Assembly (NCBI GenBank): GCA_040386275.1
Contig: JAZKFU010000003.1
Span: 112,554-172,382 of the forward strand
Source: Patescibacteria group bacterium
Lineage (GTDB): Bacteria > Patescibacteriota > Minisyncoccia > Phycocordibacterales > UBA918
Direction of reading: 5' to 3'
Length of the DNA stretch: 59,829 bases
Position 1 is the first letter of the stretch, and every line of letters starts with the position of its first letter. The notes beneath the pieces were generated by a model. The model was not told the DNA's origin and made no database searches. It saw only the letters and a program-made list of their open reading frames with translations. This document shows, in pieces, positions 20,893 through 58,704 of this stretch. The position numbers and the translations under genes were made by a program.

Positions 20893-21091
20893 CAACGCTA
20901 TAAACCGCAAGCTAATGCTTGCGGTTTATAGCGTTGTGCCGGGGAGCAAGCAAACTGCTTTGCTTGCGTGCGGGACTTGAAAGACGGAATCATGTCACTT
21001 AGCGACAGATGAGTCGGGGTCGACAGCACTTAGTAGATTTGAAACGTAGTGAACAAATATACTTAGTGACTGGTGACCAAGTCCCACCTCC
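20893..21091 (+). repeat. tRNA-Leu(TAA) trailer element (28-bp-arm palindrome, 25-nt bulged hairpin, inverted T-arm copy, module A, degenerate direct copy)
   Basis: Arms 20885-20912/20917-20944; hairpin 20945-20969; GCGGGACTTGAA 20970-20981; AGACGGAATCATGT...GTGACC; CAAGTCCCACCTCC. Confidence 0.85.
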
Positions 21092-21396
21092 TACATCACT
21101 TTCCAATTTCCATTTATATATTCAGCCACTTGCTTCCCTCCCAACGGCATTCCGTCACCATCAAACCAAACTTCATCTACAGTCATTCTTCCCACTTTAT
21201 TTACCACATAATCAAATTGCCGAACATTTCCTTCTGCATCGGGCTCACTTAGTTGAACTTCAAGCTCAACTAAAACACCTTCTTCGTTATATTTTTCTTT
21301 TTTAATTACCGTATCAGCTCCATCAATTAATTTATCAATATATCCTTGAACTTTTTCGAGCGTTGGTGGAGCATTGAATGTTTCATTATTTTCCAT
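21091..21396 (-). CDS. hypothetical acidic protein
   Basis: 101-aa ORF with protein-like composition; no recognised motif. Confidence 0.6.
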   Translation of the reverse strand: MENNETFNAPPTLEKVQGYIDKLIDGADTVIKKEKYNEEGVLVELEVQLSEPDAEGNVRQFDYVVNKVGRMTVDEVWFDGDGMPLGGKQVAEYINGNWKVM

Positions 21397-21475
21397 ATTG
21401 AAATTGTAACACTAAGAATCATACCTTGTTAAATTAACAATAATCTTGTACACTTTGGCGCACAACCTAACATTT

Positions 21476-21548
21476 GCGCCCTTAACTCAGTTGGTAGAGT
21501 AGCTCCCTCTTAAGGAGACGGTCCAAGGTTCGAATCCTTGAGGGCGCA
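21476..21548 (+). tRNA. tRNA-Lys(CTT)
   Basis: GCGCCCT TA ACTC AGTTGGTA GAGT A GCTCC CTCTTAA GGAGA ... CAAGG TTCGAAT CCTTG AGGGCGC A. Confidence 0.93.
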
Positions 21549-21569
21549 CAAAGGTAAAGTATATAAAGT

Positions 21570-21651
21570 GCGCGTGTGGCGTAATTGGTAGCCGCGTTAG
21601 TCTTAGGAACTAATGGAGCAATCCGTGGAGGTTCAAGTCCTCTCGCGCGCA
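21570..21651 (+). tRNA. tRNA-Leu(TAG)
   Basis: GCGCGTG...TTAGT CTTAGGA ACTAA variable arm GGAGG TTCAAGT CCTCT CGCGCGC A. Confidence 0.93.
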
Positions 21652-21721
21652 CTTTGTACAGTTTACCTAAACGTAAAAACCTTCCATTCGATTGGAAGGT
21701 TTATACGTATCTATTGAGTAA

Positions 21722-22768
21722 CTAAATCCCTCGCAACCTCCCTTTTCTAAACTGGGCGGGTCTGAAGTATTGGTTGTAGTATTTGGCAAAAACTTTCTTG
21801 GCTGACTCTGGCGCTTTATCAGTTACTTGGCACCATCGACCACAGTAACCATTATATTTATTAACACACCCTTCACAGCCTAAAAACAACACGTGACATA
21901 TTTGATTTTTGCAGTGGTAGTGAGTGTCACTTTTTTCGGCTGCGCATAAGTGACAATGAGAAATAATTTCCTCCCCCACTCGCTCCCCTAGCCGTTCATC
22001 AAAAACAAAGTTACTGCCAAGGAATTTGTTAGGCAACCCTTTTTCTTTTACTTGGTGTGCATAATCAATCACCCCACCACGCAGGTGACGCACATCGGTA
22101 AAGCCATTATACTTGAGCCAAGCACTAGCTTTTTCGCAGCGAATTCCCCCAGTACAATAGAGCGCAATTTTTTTATTCTTATGTACGCGCAATAATTCCG
22201 GCGTCACTTTTAATTCTTCTTTAAACGTATCAACGTCTGGTAAAATCGCGTTTTGAAAATGCCCAATCTCACTCTCGTACGCATTGCGCATATCCACCAC
22301 CACAGCCTCAGGATCATCGACATATTGGTTAATTTCTTCGGCAGTTAGATAGGCGCCCGTATCGGTTACATCAAAGGTACTATCATCTAATCCATCAGCC
22401 ACAATCTTATCTTTGACTTTTACGGTTAATTTATAAAAGGAAGAGAAATCTTTTTCCGCTACGGCGATTTTATACGGCACCCCGGTAAGTTCCGGCAGAG
22501 ATTGCAGGAAGGCATCCAGCGCCTCGAAGTTAGCCGTTAAAACGTTCATTTGAGCGTTTATACCCTCTTTCGCAACATAAATGCGTCCTAGGCACTCAAG
22601 TTCGGTAAAACACGTTAAAAGCGTTAATCTAAATACTGCAGGGTCTTTAATTTGGACATATTTGTAGAATGACAAAGTCGTTCGGGGACGAGTATCACGC
22701 GAAATAGCCGCCCGTTTTTCGGCCCGTGGTCGTGCATCAATAAATTTGGCAGGGGTGACTACGTTCAT
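21722..22768 (-). CDS. trhO: rhodanese-related tRNA uridine(34) hydroxylase (TrhO/YceA, UPF0176)
   Basis: SFYKY, GRIYVAKEGINAQ, VDMRNAYESEIGHF, LYCTGGIRCEKAS, HLRGGVIDY, NFVFDER. Confidence 0.92.
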   Translation of the reverse strand: MNVVTPAKFIDARPRAEKRAAISRDTRPRTTLSFYKYVQIKDPAVFRLTLLTCFTELECLGRIYVAKEGINAQMNVLTANFEALDAFLQSLPELTGVPYKIAVAEKDFSSFYKLTVKVKDKIVADGLDDSTFDVTDTGAYLTAEEINQYVDDPEAVVVDMRNAYESEIGHFQNAILPDVDTFKEELKVTPELLRVHKNKKIALYCTGGIRCEKASAWLKYNGFTDVRHLRGGVIDYAHQVKEKGLPNKFLGSNFVFDERLGERVGEEIISHCHLCAAEKSDTHYHCKNQICHVLFLGCEGCVNKYNGYCGRWCQVTDKAPESAKKVFAKYYNQYFRPAQFRKGRLRGI

Positions 22769-23036
22769 AAGAATAAGTGTTTGAAATAATACCTTGAGTA
22801 TCCTTACCTGACAAGGTAACACCACTAACGACCGGCATCATAAAAAGCACTAATTTACTATAGTCCTTTCAGAAAATATCGTTGTTTCTCAAGCATTTTA
22901 CTTGACTTTTAGTATTTTATATGCTATTATTCCCAACAGAGAGGAGGGCACATCCCCCACTACTCAAGGGGGCAGCCGTCCTCAAATGAAATCTAAAGAC
23001 CGCTGGTCTTTGACAATTAAAAATGGAGTAAAAAAA

Positions 23037-56849: not shown

Positions 56850-57551
56850 TTAACTTGTTGTAGTTTGAGCTGCATTTAAAGATTTTGATTGAGTCATGAC
56901 ATTAGAAATATGTTCATGGGGCGAAATTTCAACGGTTTGACAAAGGTAAGATAATTTTCCAATTGCCATGAGCAGACGTTGCTGACTGATAACAGGAGTA
57001 CCATAGGACTTTATATTTTCTACCAGCTCATGAGCATATACTACATTTTTAATCCTCTCTGTTTTAAAAACACCTGAGCCGGTAAATACTACCAAGTTAA
57101 TAAAATTTTCCTCTACAAACGGCATTAATTTTTTTAAAGTTTCAACGTGCCCATAATTTTGCCACAACGGATTTCTTAAAATAAATTTCTTTCCGGTTAA
57201 ATACCTTGCTGTCCACTTTTCATTACTTTTACTTCCAAAAATCCAACCTGAACTGTCTTTGGTTTCTATCACAAAAATACCAAATCGTGACACTACTACA
57301 TGATCTATTTCGGTTGAGGTTGAATGGGATGATGGCAATATCAAATTATTATAAATAAAATATTCATTATGATTTAAACCTTCAGCCAATATCCTCACCA
57401 CCCTTCTTTCTGAGTCGTTTAAATTTTCAGCATAGCATCTATGTCCATGACCGGAATATATAGTACGTTTTGTAAAAAAAATATTTTTATTAGCACTTTT
57501 AACAAGTAGGTAGAGGGAAAGAATGATTATTAAACTAACAACAATATTCAT
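56850..57551 (-). CDS. NERD (nuclease-related) domain protein with N-terminal TM
   Basis: TEIDHVVVSRFGIFVIETKD.SGWIFG, RNPLWQNYGHV. Confidence 0.9.
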   Translation of the reverse strand: MNIVVSLIIILSLYLLVKSANKNIFFTKRTIYSGHGHRCYAENLNDSERRVVRILAEGLNHNEYFIYNNLILPSSHSTSTEIDHVVVSRFGIFVIETKDSSGWIFGSKSNEKWTARYLTGKKFILRNPLWQNYGHVETLKKLMPFVEENFINLVVFTGSGVFKTERIKNVVYAHELVENIKSYGTPVISQQRLLMAIGKLSYLCQTVEISPHEHISNVMTQSKSLNAAQTTTS

Positions 57552-57603
57552 ATATTTAATATGATAGCAGTGGATGGAGATGATCTGGTGTATTTGTGTA
57601 CAC

Positions 57604-57937
57604 GGTCGGGTGCTTGAGGGCAGGCTCGGTCACGAGTTACTAAGTATATTTGTGCATTGCGTGCAAATTCTACTAGGTGTTCTCGACCCGAGAAACAGTG
57701 CCTAAACACTGTTTCTCCCGCTGTTTCGGCTCTAGGAAGAGCCAAAACATGCCTGTGCCTTTCGTTTCTTACAGAAACTGTATACCTTGTCGCTACTTTT
57801 ACATTTCATTCCAAAGTAGCTGGCAAGGTCTTGCAGAGTGACATTGGGTCACTCTTCACCCGCACGTAACTGACATTGGTCAGTTGCTCCCCAAGCACCG
57901 GGTACAGAAATAGCCCCTTGCGGGGCTTTCTGTACGC
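57604..57937 (-). repeat. tRNA-Phe trailer element containing the 25-nt hairpin, module B and module A plus a distal direct copy of the tRNA 3' end
   Basis: Hairpin 57864-57888; module B 57761-57830; module A 57628-57760; GGTGCTTGAGGGCAGGCTC (57609-57627) versus tRNA GGTGCTTGGGGGCGGGCTC (17/19). Confidence 0.88.
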
Positions 57938-58012
57938 GGTGCTTGGGGGCGGGCTCGAACCGCCGACCCCTTCCTCTTCAGGGAAATGCTCTACCAACTG
58001 AGCTACCCAAGC
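57938..58012 (-). tRNA. tRNA-Phe(GAA)
   Basis: Reverse complement GCTTGGGTAGCTCAGTTGGTAGAGCATTTCCCTGAAGAGGAAGGGGTCGGCGGTTCGAGCCCGCCCCCAAGCACC. Confidence 0.95.
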
Positions 58013-58109
58013 GTGCTGTGGCGGACTATGATGGCTTTTGACCTTCTTAGAACGTACCCGCCATTGTACCTGTTTCTTGATTTATTTCAACCAAATATCA
58101 AGGCATGTT

Positions 58110-58403
58110 CTACTGCTGTCCCTGATAGATTTTTAACGCTTCCTGGAGAAGTTCGTAGTTACTCGTACTTTGGGTCTCAGTGCCTCCAAAATTGCTCATA
58201 AAGGCATTGTAGAGGTAATAGTAGGCAAAGAGTGGTAAGCCGAGCAATACCACGTACCAGGCGATTTTAAACCAAAATTGCCGAATCTCCCTGCGGTCAA
58301 TTTTTTGTAATAATTCGTGATTAGCTACGAGCAACTCATGGTTTGCCTTGGTAAGCTCTAGAATGGTTTCTGCCTCTTGTTTTTCCGGTAATTCTGGATT
58401 CAT
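58110..58403 (-). CDS. small single-TM hypothetical protein
   Basis: ILELTKANHELL..I.RR...WFKIAWYVVLLGLP. Confidence 0.7.
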   Translation of the reverse strand: MNPELPEKQEAETILELTKANHELLVANHELLQKIDRREIRQFWFKIAWYVVLLGLPLFAYYYLYNAFMSNFGGTETQSTSNYELLQEALKIYQGQQ

Positions 58404-58449
58404 ATCAATACAGTATAGCAGAGGAAATTATGCTAAAATGCCCGCACTT

Positions 58450-58521
58450 GCCCACATAGCTCAATGGATAGAGCTACTCCGTCCTAAGGAGAGGATCCTG
58501 GTTCGATTCCGGGTGCGGGCA
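58450..58521 (+). tRNA. tRNA-Arg(CCT)
   Basis: GCCCACA TA GCTC AATGGATA GAGC T ACTCC GTCCTAA GGAGA GGAT CCTGG TTCGATT CCGGG TGCGGGC A; A5.C68 mismatch. Confidence 0.9.
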
Positions 58522-58704
58522 CATTGATGCAAACTAATAAACACTCTTCAAAAAGAAGAGTGTTTATTAGTTTAGCAAGCAACCTGCGTTGCTTGCGGGC
58601 ATCAATGTGAGACGGAGTCATGTTTTCTCCTCCTTCCTAGAGGAGGAAACAGACGAGTCCGGTGAGGAAGTTCTTATGAGTGTCAGCGAATTAGAAACTT
58701 GACC
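58522..58704 (+). repeat. tRNA-Arg trailer element (long palindrome, 25-nt hairpin, module A variant)
   Basis: Hairpin 58574-58598; AGACGGAGTCATGT at 58610; TTATGAGTGTCAGCGAATT shared with the Val element. Confidence 0.85.

Follow-up and report, generated by a model that had tools for sequence, protein, structure and literature searches.

Within tRNA and tmRNA genes, integrases use sublocations at the T-loop and the 3' end; integration of the CTX phage leaves an inverted copy, a spacer of ~100 nt and a direct copy; and in the hairpins of attC and IS608, mismatches and bulges serve as strand-selectivity marks. Here, we describe a family of cassettes of ~150–350 nt that encode no protein and occur at the 3' ends of highly conserved genes (tRNA, tmRNA and ftsZ) in ultra-small Patescibacteria/CPR bacteria. 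The family has apparently not yet been described, and we found no account of it in the literature. The window, i.e., the whole stretch of 59,829 nt that was analyzed (contig JAZKFU010000003.1 of a Patescibacteria group bacterium), contains six copies of a folded motif, Module A. With slightly less than even confidence, we favor the reading that Module A is the selected folded core of a horizontally spreading cassette that replaces gene 3' ends.

The initial annotation had placed copies of Module A at 20982, 42033, 44729, 50135, 57760 (minus strand) and 58610, and all six were confirmed. Our covariance model, R1, was built from the Leu and Glu copies of the window, which thus match it by construction, and from 81 copies of other genomes (83 in all). 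R1 has exactly six sense-strand matches in the window (116 to 29 bits; E-values 1e-26 to 2e-5; coordinates take in 12-nt flanks), the remaining matches being weak reverse-strand echoes of the near-palindromic hairpin 2. Copies within one genome have diverged from each other and are still folded; hence there was no recent burst, which is as compatible with old, selected residents as with mobile DNA.

In hairpin 1 (P1), which folds around a G-N-A/G-A internal loop beside a fixed C:G pair, the strings reported earlier were found exactly: GAC-GGA-GTC...GAC-GA-GTC in Glu and Arg, GAC-GGA-ATC...GAT-GA-GTC in Leu, and AGC-GGA-GCG...CGC-GA-GCT in Val. The apical TTCCTA loop ascribed to most copies is present in four of the six (ftsZ, Val, Phe and Arg). 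Two copies depart from the consensus: in ftsZ the 3' side of the internal loop is degenerate (..GCAGACC-GTC), and Phe has ACA instead of GGA, as well as an additional hairpin separating hairpins 1 and 2. Hairpin 2 (P2) is closed at its base by a G.U pair, contains a bulged A and a helix with a U.U mismatch, and is capped by a GA-flanked mini-hairpin; it has a long form (CACTTAGTA...TACTTAGTG; Leu, ftsZ, Glu and, with two substitutions, Phe) and a short form (CTTATGAGYGTCAGCGAATT; Val and Arg). The earlier statement that both end in GACC holds only loosely: in Val, GTGACC is internal to the outer stem TGTCC/GGACA, and the Arg copy ends in TTGACCCC. Nor are the two forms swapped modules; they are length variants of one homologous hairpin, with a common C-U-U.U-A helix, tandem G.A pairs and a GC-GNA/GNRA-GC cap (GAGCGNNAGCGAA). 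Module swapping does stand in so far as the motif is mixed with hairpin H, Module B and the extra hairpin.

Selection on secondary structure, proposed from the window alone, is strongly supported by larger alignments, in which pairing and covariation lie far above shuffled and slid controls. Among 150 model-aligned copies, 96.5% of the cells pair (77% shuffled, ~30% slid), with compensatory changes at 24 of 27 pairs. In an alignment of 83 copies made with MAFFT only, the fraction is 97.7% (82% shuffled, 27–38% slid), and the covariation score of 0.42, compared to 0.13, was reached by none of 500 shuffles. The G.U pair at the P2 base, conserved in 131 of the 150 copies, and the frequent G.U variants suggest that the tRNA-sense strand is the folded one. 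Furthermore, no Rfam 15 family matches Module A at gathering or E-value thresholds. A scan with a 20-base pattern gave matches in at least 116 genome stretches, and in fact more, almost all from Patescibacteria/CPR among the matches listed. No true, phage-borne copy was detected in 2.9 million viral contigs.

Module A is not the free-standing 100-nt unit first described; it always lies inside a larger, target-derived architecture (Table 1). The composite element consists, in order, of the gene 3' end (X), a terminator-type hairpin (T), an antisense copy of X (X'), often accompanied by the conserved hairpin H, then P1 and P2, and finally the displaced original 3' end (X''); X' extends T into a long helix, S1. 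Of ~106 evaluable copies, 82 lie at most 450 nt downstream of a same-strand tRNA gene, covering 31 anticodons, while the others follow tmRNA-like 3' ends or ftsZ; the orientation is always sense and downstream. X' and X'' are specific for the neighboring gene: the longest antisense match has a median of 10 nt for the neighboring tRNA versus 5 nt for other tRNAs, and sense copies 3' of P2 reach 22 nt; in class 1 the sense copy starts at T-loop C56, in class 2 at the tRNA end.

Table 1. Features of the Module A elements and of two sister elements in the window
Feature	Position	Strand	Remarks
Leu, R1 match	20971-21090	+	116 bits
Leu, upstream part	20885..20981	+	X 20885-20901 (tRNA-Leu acceptor 3' strand and trailer)
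Leu, terminator-like hairpin T	20902-20927	+	
Leu, X'a	20928-20944	+	perfect antisense of X
Leu, hairpin H	20945-20969	+	
Leu, X'b	20970-20981	+	antisense of T-loop and T-stem
Leu, P1	20983..21015	+	GAC-GGA-AUC ... GAU-GA-GUC
Leu, P2	21018..21078	+	long form
Leu, X''	21078..21091	+	decayed sense copy of tRNA-Leu 3' end from T-loop C56; CAAGTCCCACCTCC vs CAAGTCCCGCCCCC
ftsZ, R1 match	42022-42158	+	95 bits
ftsZ, long hairpin S1	41963..42031	+	X 41963-41992, last ftsZ codons, Ala-Val-Pro onward
ftsZ, S1 loop	41993-42001	+	with stop codon
ftsZ, X'	42002-42031	+	antisense of X
ftsZ, P1	42034..42083	+	internal-loop 3' side degenerate; TTTCCTA apical loop
ftsZ, P2	42086..42146	+	long form
ftsZ, X''	42146..42174	+	decayed duplicate of C-terminal coding end (VPAFSKTN*)
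ftsZ, ordinary terminator	42188-42215	+	after X''
Glu, R1 match	44718-44850	+	113 bits
Glu, upstream part	44639..44728	+	X 44639-44649 (last tRNA-Glu bases and trailer)
Glu, T	44650-44693	+	
Glu, H	44694-44717	+	
Glu, X'	44718-44728	+	perfect antisense of X
Glu, P1	44730..44775	+	
Glu, P2	44778..44838	+	long form
Glu, short X''	44840..44845	+	CACAGA, repeats tRNA end/trailer junction
Val, R1 match	50124-50240	+	29 bits
Val, upstream part	50044..50134	+	X 50044-50054; T 50055-50088; X'a 50089-50098; H 50099-50122
Val, X'b	50123-50134	+	antisense of T-loop and T-stem
Val, P1	50136..50180	+	AGC-GGA-GCG ... CGC-GA-GCU
Val, P2	50182..50229	+	short form; outer stem UGUCC/GGACA
Val, X''	50228..50244	+	decayed; CAAGTCCTGTACTCTAC vs tRNA CGAGCCCTGTATTTCGC
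Phe, R1 match	57616-57771	-	45 bits
Phe, upstream part	57785..57948	-	X 57930-57948; T 57908-57929; X'a 57889-57907; H 57865-57888; X'b 57854-57864
Phe, small hairpin	57835-57855	-	
Phe, Module-B-like hairpin	57785-57828	-	
Phe, Module A	57628..57759	-	P1 57718-57759 (GGC-ACA-GGC); extra hairpin 57690-57717
Phe, P2	57628-57688	-	long form; two substitutions in conserved helix
Phe, X''	57609..57628	-	CGAGCCTGCCCTCAAGCACC; 17/20 positions match tRNA-Phe 3' end
Arg, R1 match	58599-58718	+	31 bits
Arg, upstream part	58519..58609	+	X 58519-58530; T 58531-58573; H 58574-58597; X' 58598-58609
Arg, P1	58611..58659	+	
Arg, P2	58660..58706	+	short form
tRNA-Ser sister element	44253..44442	+	like architecture, Module B replaces Module A; X 44253-44273; T 44279-44304; X'a 44310-44319; H 44320-44343; X'b 44344-44355
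tRNA-Ser, Module B	44359-44402	+	
tRNA-Ser, X''	44422-44442	+	20/21 positions match X
tRNA-Cys sister element	20005..20193	-	T 20138-20172; X' 20121-20134; Module B 20087-20118; X'' 20047-20068
tRNA-Cys, second terminator	20005-20046	-	

Several loci bear the marks of insertion and exchange. At one ftsZ locus (L099), a plain terminator directly follows the gene, i.e., the site is empty. Another (L005) carries two tandem cassettes, with X1 functional, X2 intact and X3 decayed, and at the tRNA-Glu gene of L005, an older class-2 cassette is preceded by an inserted class-1 cassette; in L031, a perfect tandem array ends with X'' and the original terminator. Across four ftsZ loci, X and X'' differ at 33 nucleotides without a single amino-acid change; X'' is decayed in three other loci. 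Between the window and L067, ftsZ is 96–100% identical, and identity drops to 66–86% exactly over X, X', P1 and the 5' side of P2: the cassette has been swapped between near-identical relatives. Besides this pair, no presence/absence polymorphism within a population was seen. The initial annotation had argued for function rather than decay; this stands for the fold, but not necessarily as a function for the host, since each copy sits in an inserted-type cassette with a sense duplicate and an antisense copy. Because the cassette has the behavior of DNA that was inserted and exchanged horizontally, selection could favor the element itself.

According to the reading that we favor, the cassette would bring its own copy of the target 3' end (X), followed by T, X', often H, and Module A, and the recipient's original 3' end (X'') would stay directly after P2 and then decay; since the target gene remains intact, insertion would be silent. 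The cassette may move horizontally between orthologous sites, most likely by DNA uptake followed by homologous recombination, with the conserved gene as the left arm and X'' (empty sites) or the conserved P2 (occupied sites) as the right arm. Natural competence has been documented in Patescibacteria, as has homologous recombination (PMC11665869). The copies have no conserved protein as a neighbor. What would maintain the fold is a conserved trans-acting factor that recognizes the sense strand, either in RNA (read-through or 3'-UTR) or in folded single-stranded DNA, for the propagation or upkeep of the cassette. Transcription support is weak, coming from low-depth metatranscriptome contigs, none from the window's own organism. 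Several points weigh against this reading, among them the divergence of copies within one genome, the weak transcription support and the lack of polymorphism beyond the pair with L067. Spread by homologous recombination alone requires no elaborate fold; the strong covariation, S1 changes that compensate each other between orthologous copies (L096/L098; L032/L056) and the tracking of X by X' (X' follows functional X rather than X'' by 17 to 6) point to some further activity. How a cassette first comes to have matching X and X' for a new target is left without explanation, and right-arm homology of 4–22 nt is short for RecA.

The same S1 changes, and the complementarity that X' keeps to the functional tRNA while X'' decays, would also be expected if the whole unit (S1, T, H, P1 and P2) were a host-beneficial, cis-acting 3' trailer or 3'-UTR domain of tRNA, tmRNA and ftsZ transcripts. 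Such a domain might act in 3'-end formation, in processing (for example, with double-stranded S1 serving as an RNase III-type site, or by offering a platform to RNase Z, RNase P or the CCA-adding enzyme), or as a shield against 3' exonucleases in hosts that have few RNases. The constant position, the tolerance of G.U pairs by the sense strand, the age and retained folding of diverged copies within a genome, and the cassette's presence at ~60% of tRNA/tmRNA genes in the sampled loci, a biased sample, all suit this proposal, and at ftsZ the real terminator comes only after the module, which follows the stop codon and must therefore belong to the mRNA. In tRNA loci, however, a strong terminator-type hairpin precedes the module, so that most transcripts should stop short of it, and S1 would unfold the very tRNA being served. 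Moreover, X'', the tandem arrays, the empty ftsZ site, the synonymous-only X/X'' divergence and the swap between near-identical genomes are left unexplained. We regard a host RNA domain as rather unlikely.

The geometry of the element is constant: X' (10–20 nt) ends 1–2 nt upstream of P1, X'' adjoins the last base of P2, and the duplicated segment begins where the X:X' helix does. This, along with the gene specificity of X' and its better conservation than X'', is what one would expect of a guide attached to a protein-binding scaffold, Module A, and directing a trans-encoded enzyme (a recombinase, nuclease or modifier) to the neighboring gene or its RNA; integration could thereby be guided by nucleic acid to precisely the P2|X'' boundary. 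The GA/GNA loop occurs twice, as a repeated protein-binding site would, and the P2 sequence is strongly conserved across many CPR lineages. Nevertheless, this explanation appears improbable: no candidate enzyme was found beside any of ~120 copies, occupied alleles still contain the target X, so that a homing nuclease would cleave the locus it resides in, the module is not proven to be transcribed, and ordinary recombination accounts for the ftsZ data.

We consider it similarly improbable that the element is a single-stranded DNA recombination site, formed when the sense strand takes up its fold on the lagging-strand template or in incoming transforming DNA, with an X':X or X':X'' duplex plus P1–P2 as substrate for a tyrosine-recombinase or HUH-type enzyme. 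Targets as different as 31 anticodons and ftsZ imply that a site-reading protein cannot account for the specificity; the conserved G.U wobble and the CUUG/GNRA-type loops are more RNA-like, no recombinase is linked to the copies, and no excised or circular form was observed. That the motif is an inert repeat, whether a decaying remnant or an assembly artefact, is very improbable despite its degenerate parts (the ftsZ P1 loop, the Phe copy and many X'' segments), as it is contradicted by the covariation tests on both the 150-copy and the 83-copy alignments, by the motif's presence in more than 100 independently assembled genomes, and by folding kept in orthologous copies across ~20–35% ftsZ nucleotide divergence.

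What speaks for a single-stranded DNA site is its likeness to described systems, the models being the integron attC, the CTX-phage attP and the ends of IS200/IS605. The GCGAAGC / GC-GNA-GC cap is the classic very stable DNA mini-hairpin, and the T-loop and 3'-end sublocations are the very ones that integrases use. The layout of the cassette, an inverted copy, a spacer of ~100 nt and a direct copy beside a direct repeat at the other end, matches the outcome of CTX-phage integration. Likewise, the conserved U.U mismatch and bulged A of Module A resemble the strand-selectivity marks of the attC and IS608 hairpins.

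Searching the window with R1, a covariance model of Module A (the tandem hairpins P1 and P2), returned on the sense strand exactly the six copies listed in the initial annotation, whose coordinates and hairpin-1 strings proved exact throughout (see the table for scores). R1 was trained on 83 copies; 81 come from other genomes, and the other two are the Leu and Glu copies of the window, which therefore match by construction. The remaining window matches are weak reverse-strand echoes of the near-palindromic P2. Rfam 15, applied at gathering thresholds to the whole window, detected nine tRNAs and nothing else, and permissive E-value scans of two element regions gave generic hairpin noise, far below gathering scores; Module A is not an annotated family of Rfam 15. 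Neither Rfam 15 nor the searchable literature, queried by sequence string and by topic, yielded a description of the element.

Features located in the window and, where named, in other genome stretches (L numbers), with R1 scores of the Module A copies
Feature	Position	Strand	R1 score (bits)	Remark
Module A, tRNA-Leu copy			116	
Module A, tRNA-Glu copy			113	
Module A, ftsZ copy			95	
Module A, tRNA-Phe copy		minus	45	
Module A, tRNA-Arg copy			31	
Module A, tRNA-Val copy			29	
Hairpin H	20945-20969	plus		
Hairpin H	44694-44717	plus		
Hairpin H	50099-50122	plus		
Hairpin H	58574-58597	plus		
Hairpin H	57865-57888	minus		
Module B	44359-44402	plus		
Module B	20087-20118	minus		
Module B	57785-57828	minus		
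Module B, other genomes				L004, L017, L018, L068, L072, L076
P2 open reading frame (example)	44778-44838			
Hairpin-2 word-depth peak	42042-42155			
Hairpin-2 word-depth peak	44778-44891			
NERD protein gene	56850-57551	minus		
HNH_3 ORF, 160 amino acids	20339-20821	plus		Pfam E = 6e-07
Conserved non-coding stretch	43835-44180	plus		
Two-unit array in L031	1999-2292	plus		after tRNA-Lys(ctt)
Empty ftsZ site in L099	~5700-5800	plus		ftsZ on minus

Single-copy RNAfold and RNAalifold of all 83 copies gave concordant folds. The outer stem of P1 comprises three base pairs, the last a fixed C:G. Beyond an internal loop of G-N-A opposite G-A, a second stem of 3 bp leads through a small AU/N loop to an apical stem, which varies and often has a UUCCUA loop. 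Directly 3' of P1 lies a GG linker. The base of P2 is GGUCG/UGACC, with a conserved G.U as its closing pair; above it are an A.G mismatch, three covarying pairs, a bulged A, the helix CACUUAGUA/UACUUAGUG, which has a U.U at its centre, then a stem that varies, and finally a cap consisting of a 2-3-bp mini-hairpin flanked by tandem G.A pairs (GA-GC-GNA/GNRA-GC-GAA). The GA/GNA loop type occurs twice per module, in P1 and, inverted, in the P2 cap.

The selection on secondary structure proposed in the initial annotation is borne out by the alignments. With MAFFT only, 97.7% of the cells in the 83-copy alignment were paired, as against 82% after shuffling and 27-38% when the partners were slid, and the covariation score was 0.42 versus 0.13, a value of 0.42 being reached by none of 500 shuffles. 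An alignment of 150 copies, which was fitted to the model, gave 96.5% paired cells (77% shuffled, 29-36% with slid partners) and a score of 0.479 versus 0.146. Both sides changed in 24 of its 27 pairs; the middle pair of the P1 outer stem, for example, is CG in 52 copies, GC in 45, AU in 27 and UA in 10. The seeming invariance of CACUUAGU/ACUUAGU in the 83-copy set is an artefact of the search pattern, and these pairs covary too in the extra copies found by the model. Since G.U pairs are common in Module A and A.C pairs rare, and since the conserved G.U at the base of P2 would read C.A on the opposite strand, the folded strand is the tRNA-sense one, either as RNA or as single-stranded DNA.

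The idea that modules had been swapped stands in part. What had been taken for two versions of hairpin 2 are mostly length variants of one hairpin: the short P2 of the Val and Arg type, present also in L030, L108, L007, L019 and L082 (numbered genome stretches with pattern matches), is without the middle of the stem and keeps the C-U-U.U-A helix, the tandem G.A pairs and the mini-hairpin cap. The Phe copy, on the other hand, does contain both Module A and a second module, Module B. In all copies, one frame of P2 is open (..EHLVD...EQIYLVIRD..), giving spurious small 'conserved proteins' in ORF clustering, and it is likely that false hypothetical-protein families in CPR annotations stem from this frame. 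Coding by P2 was rejected on account of the compensatory changes and of indels whose lengths are not divisible by three.

The initial annotation had missed that Module A forms the core of an insertion cassette, one that duplicates its target and bears an antisense copy of it. The layout around every copy is constant: the 3' end of a gene (X), a hairpin T, an antisense copy of X (X'), often a further hairpin H, Module A, and a sense copy representing the displaced original 3' end (X''). T has the shape of a bidirectional terminator (A tract, GC stem, U tract) and is lengthened by X' into a long helix, S1, while X'' begins directly after the last base of P2. In class 1 cassettes, X' is antisense to the acceptor 3' strand and, past H, to the T-stem and T-loop, and X'' runs from T-loop C56 exactly to the tRNA end, often as a perfect copy of 19-22 nt. 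In class 2, the antisense X' covers 4-6 bases at the very end of the tRNA and 6-8 of the trailer, and X'' is short (CACA...). The length of the duplicated segment ranges from 4 to ~36 nt across loci.

These copies are specific to their neighbours. The longest exact antisense match to the cassette's own neighbouring tRNA has a median of 10 nt, compared with 5 nt for the tRNAs of other loci; for the sense copy after P2, the medians are 7 nt (maximum 22) and 5 nt. Furthermore, trailer 6-mers recur as antisense in 39 of 79 loci, versus 10.4 ± 2.9 with swapped trailers. Two near-identical orthologous cassettes (L096 and L098) differ by a trailer change, AGCAGT/AACAGT, that is mirrored in X' (ACTGCT/ACTGTT), and a synonymous ftsZ change between L032 (GTGCC) and L056 (GTTCC) is likewise mirrored (GGCAC/GGAAC). 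At class 1 positions where X and X'' disagree, X' sides with the functional tRNA 17 times and with X'' six times. As X' tracks X in these ways, structure beyond Module A is being kept as well, and the conserved helix is X:X', not the closing stem X':X'' drawn by folding programs.

H is a conserved unit of its own, with the form AG, a covarying stem of 9-10 bp around a CUGC/UAGU-type loop, then CG; the C-CUGC-G loop is also common to many T hairpins at other loci (e.g. AAAACAGUGCCUGCGCACUGUUUU). Module B consists of GUUGCCAG, a hairpin and CGACAAC, then CUGUACUGAA..UGUAAG, and takes Module A's slot between the antisense and sense T-arm copies. It serves as the apical module in the window's tRNA-Ser and tRNA-Cys elements, which have the same cassette architecture, and the cap GAGCGAAGCGAA is common to the P2 apex and several Module B copies.

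For 82 of ~106 evaluable copies, a tRNA gene on the same strand lies no more than 450 nt upstream, with 31 anticodons represented, and most of the others follow ftsZ or tmRNA 3' ends (..CCATCTCCAC). Within the loci searched, Module A was found at 89 of the 147 tRNA and tmRNA genes with enough downstream sequence, a fraction biased upwards because the loci were picked for the motif. ORF clustering within 3.5 kb of ~120 copies revealed no recombinase, only housekeeping synteny (FtsZ, FtsA, TrxB-like) and spurious repeat ORFs, and the neighbours of the window copies are ordinary, unrelated genes; no protein family recurs beside the cassettes. Immediately downstream of the tRNA-Phe cassette is a gene for a NERD (nuclease-related domain) protein, a position that is probably coincidental, since other copies showed no enrichment of NERD in their vicinity. 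Between tRNA-Cys and tRNA-Leu(taa) is an ORF with an HNH_3 endonuclease domain, which ends 13 nt within the 5' end of tRNA-Leu(taa); it resembles a free-standing gene for a homing-type endonuclease within a cluster of tRNA genes, and no link to the cassette was found. Finally, a non-coding stretch of ~340 nt upstream of tRNA-Ser is conserved in the distant relative L005 (e.g. GTACAACGTAGAGA..GGAGAAAATCACCACCA.GCAAACCT), has no Rfam match, and may be another unannotated RNA or regulatory region.

We ran a 20-base pattern from hairpin 2 against a collection of species-representative genomes. The matches listed include more than 116 genome stretches, and among these the carriers are nearly all Patescibacteria/CPR metagenome-assembled genomes (MAGs), labelled, perhaps coarsely in some cases, as Kaiserbacteria, Paceibacterota/Paceibacteria, Parcubacteria, Nomurabacteria, Yonathbacteria, Lloydbacteria, Campbellbacteria, Saccharibacteria or 'Patescibacteria group'. 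One carrier MAG (L007) bears the label of a flavobacterial genus, and two matches (L011, L083) are unrelated simple repeats. The window's closest relative among the matches listed is L067 (MAG ADI_DC_SW_02...bin026), with ~96% identity over 7 kb. The same pattern matched one of 2.9 million viral contigs, by chance within a coding region, and with this as the sole viral match a phage or prophage origin was rejected. Over hairpin 2, assemblies of watershed and sediment metagenomes had a word depth of 40-150, compared with 1-17 in adjacent bins; this excess shows that the core is repeated in many co-occurring genomes, and such a repeat will break or mis-join short-read assemblies. Among the metagenome contigs on the window we found no clean empty allele, hairpin 2 being many-fold deeper than its flanks.

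Several loci show that the cassette is DNA which has been inserted and exchanged, and the evidence for insertion is direct. In L099, a Patescibacteria MAG with Module A elsewhere, the ftsZ stop codon is followed by a plain terminator at the place where eight other genomes have a cassette; this unoccupied end is a useful natural 'empty site' control. In L005, ftsZ is followed by a tandem pair of cassettes, and its coding end is present three times: as the functional end, then as an intact copy and last as a decayed one. At the tRNA-Glu of L005, a class 1 cassette lies upstream of an older class 2 cassette that still pairs with the displaced tRNA end. In L031, a perfect two-unit array with a period of 159 nt, each unit a minimal cassette (X, T, X', P1, P2), ends in an 11-nt X'' and the original terminator.

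At four ftsZ loci X and X'' differ at 2-11 nt (33 in total) with no amino-acid change, both encoding the same 11-residue peptide; at three others X'' has decayed. Such synonymous-only divergence implies that both evolved inside working ftsZ genes and, consequently, that X came from another lineage. A target-site duplication was rejected, as X and X'' differ, and only synonymously. When the ftsZ loci of the window and L067 are compared, identity is 96-100% up to ~41930, falls to 66-86% precisely over X, X', P1 and the 5' half of P2, and is regained in the conserved 3' strand of P2 and X''. The cassette has thus been swapped, its breakpoints lying in the gene and in P2.

The most economical route of spread would be DNA uptake and homologous recombination. 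The conserved gene would serve as the left arm; the right arm would be X'' at empty sites and the conserved P2 at occupied ones, the latter leading either to replacement (window versus L067) or to tandem addition (L005, L056). Both natural competence and genetics based on recombination have been documented in Patescibacteria (PMC11665869). Targets as conserved as tRNA, tmRNA and the FtsZ C-terminal peptide would suit an element that spreads in this manner. However, homologous recombination leaves the elaborate covarying fold and the matched antisense at a fixed position unexplained. Something reads the fold, and we rank a conserved trans-acting factor for the cassette first, followed by host RNA processing or stability, a guide or scaffold, and a folded single-stranded DNA recombination site. 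Several metatranscriptome assemblies contain 31-mers of hairpin 2 (word depth 2-18, contigs of 150-440 nt, DNA carry-over being possible), which faintly suggests that Module A is transcribed; RNA runs matching the window region gave tRNA-Glu-like sequence only.

We think it unlikely that the cassette is a self-guided mobile element of a new kind, in which X', beside the P1-P2 scaffold, would pair with the target 3' end, and either a conserved CPR enzyme acting in trans or the folded nucleic acid would cut and join exactly at the P2 boundary; this would amount to programmable, nucleic-acid-guided integration that needs no element-encoded protein. The constant geometry would fit, since X' lies 1-2 nt before P1 and X'' starts from the last P2 base, and the duplication starts where the X:X' helix starts, as such integration predicts. 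Guide-plus-scaffold RNAs (the IS110 bridge RNA, the omega RNA of IscB/TnpB, the EBS-IBS pairing of group II introns) also have a target-complementary segment at a fixed place beside a conserved structured scaffold, which sets the element boundary to the nucleotide. In contrast to these, the guide here matches the element's own sequence, no recombinase, nuclease or reverse-transcriptase gene is linked, and Rfam matched neither group I/II introns nor omega-RNA-like families. An X'-guided homing nuclease is at odds with a target still present in occupied alleles, splicing of the cassette was set aside because X'' decays and splicing is therefore unneeded, and snap-back copying as the origin of X' conflicts with the antisense being interrupted by H in T-loop-type copies.

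A large part of bacterial diversity belongs to the Patescibacteria/CPR and, to our knowledge, very little is known of their RNA or mobile-element biology. Judged by the sampled loci, a set biased upwards, where it follows most tRNA genes as well as tmRNA and ftsZ, the cassette is common in their small genomes, and annotation pipelines do not flag it. If spread by transformation and 3'-end replacement is correct, the cassette would be a clean case of enzyme-less selfish DNA exploiting conserved gene ends, and could readily serve to mark gene flow between CPR lineages; should the fold instead be a scaffold with a built-in guide, or a domain for tRNA 3'-end processing, it would point to a new RNA-protein machine. 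Either way, more than 100 natural variants are at hand of a well-defined, testable RNA or single-stranded DNA structure.

The defining feature set of none of the known families compared is present in the cassette. Integrase-type tRNA/tmRNA islands, including non-autonomous cis-mobilizable remnants, share with it 3' insertion, a replacement end that keeps the gene intact, the persistence of the displaced end as a direct repeat, the use of T-loop and 3'-end sublocations, and accumulation in tandem. A direct repeat of the tRNA 3' end is indeed found, as neighbour-specific sense copies of up to 22 nt directly after P2, whereas no tyrosine or serine recombinase is encoded or linked among the ORFs within 3.5 kb of ~120 copies. 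Moreover, at 150-350 nt the cassette is ~100 times smaller, it also targets a protein gene (ftsZ), every copy adds an antisense target copy and conserved covarying hairpins, and the synonymous changes between X and X'' suggest import by homologous recombination, not site-specific crossover.

CTX-phage attP and integron attC likewise have inverted and direct target copies ~100 nt apart that can fold into a duplex site, and a strand-specific fold with conserved mismatches. These systems use one fixed site (dif or attI), read by XerCD or IntI, whereas the cassette duplicates whichever gene end is upstream, and no such recombinase or cassette array was seen. With REP/BIME/REPIN sequences and bacterial MITEs (Correia, RUP, BOX, ERIC), the cassette shares small size, the lack of proteins, intergenic location mostly after gene 3' ends, mosaic hairpin modules and many copies per genome. 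Those families are species-specific, with copies that hardly differ inside one genome; cassette copies within a genome are diverged yet covarying, and the core spans many CPR lineages, occurring, unlike REPs, in more than 100 genomes labelled as different lineages among the matches listed. A MITE is further excluded because the flanking X'/X'' arms are target-derived and locus-specific instead of fixed terminal repeats, the duplication varies (4 to ~36 nt), and the six window copies differ throughout their variable parts.

ROOL, GOLLD and YrlA are also conserved structured RNA candidates beside tRNA genes, but Module A is much smaller than ROOL and GOLLD, and the Rfam models of all three gave no match. 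YrlA contains tRNA-derived sequence; in the cassette, T-loop sequence is paired with its own antisense and forms no T-arm mimic, and with no Rfam match a Y RNA was rejected. The other candidates fail more simply: for kink-turns and box C/D RNAs, the P1 loop has three nucleotides (G-N-A) opposite two (G-A) without a 3-nt bulge plus GA, and for box C/D the P1 3' strand is NNGA (CGA, UGA, CCGA ...) with only GA fixed and no RUGAUGA box; in H/ACA RNAs' case, the ACA after P2 derives from the tRNA end and is missing from T-loop-type copies; a group I/II intron is incompatible with an element of ~200 nt that has no domain-V-like hairpin and whose X'' decays at many loci; an intrinsic terminator would need U tracts, which follow neither P1 nor P2, although the upstream hairpin T does fit; and a T-box fits neither by sequence rules nor by Rfam. 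The string CAGAUGAG resembles CUGAUGAG of hammerheads in the Leu copy only, other copies having CAGACGAG, CCGCGAG and the like, and hammerhead or other small self-cleaving ribozymes seem excluded, no conserved GAAA following and no Rfam ribozyme matching. Set against all of these, Module A is a real and strongly covarying structure that lies far from the known kinds.
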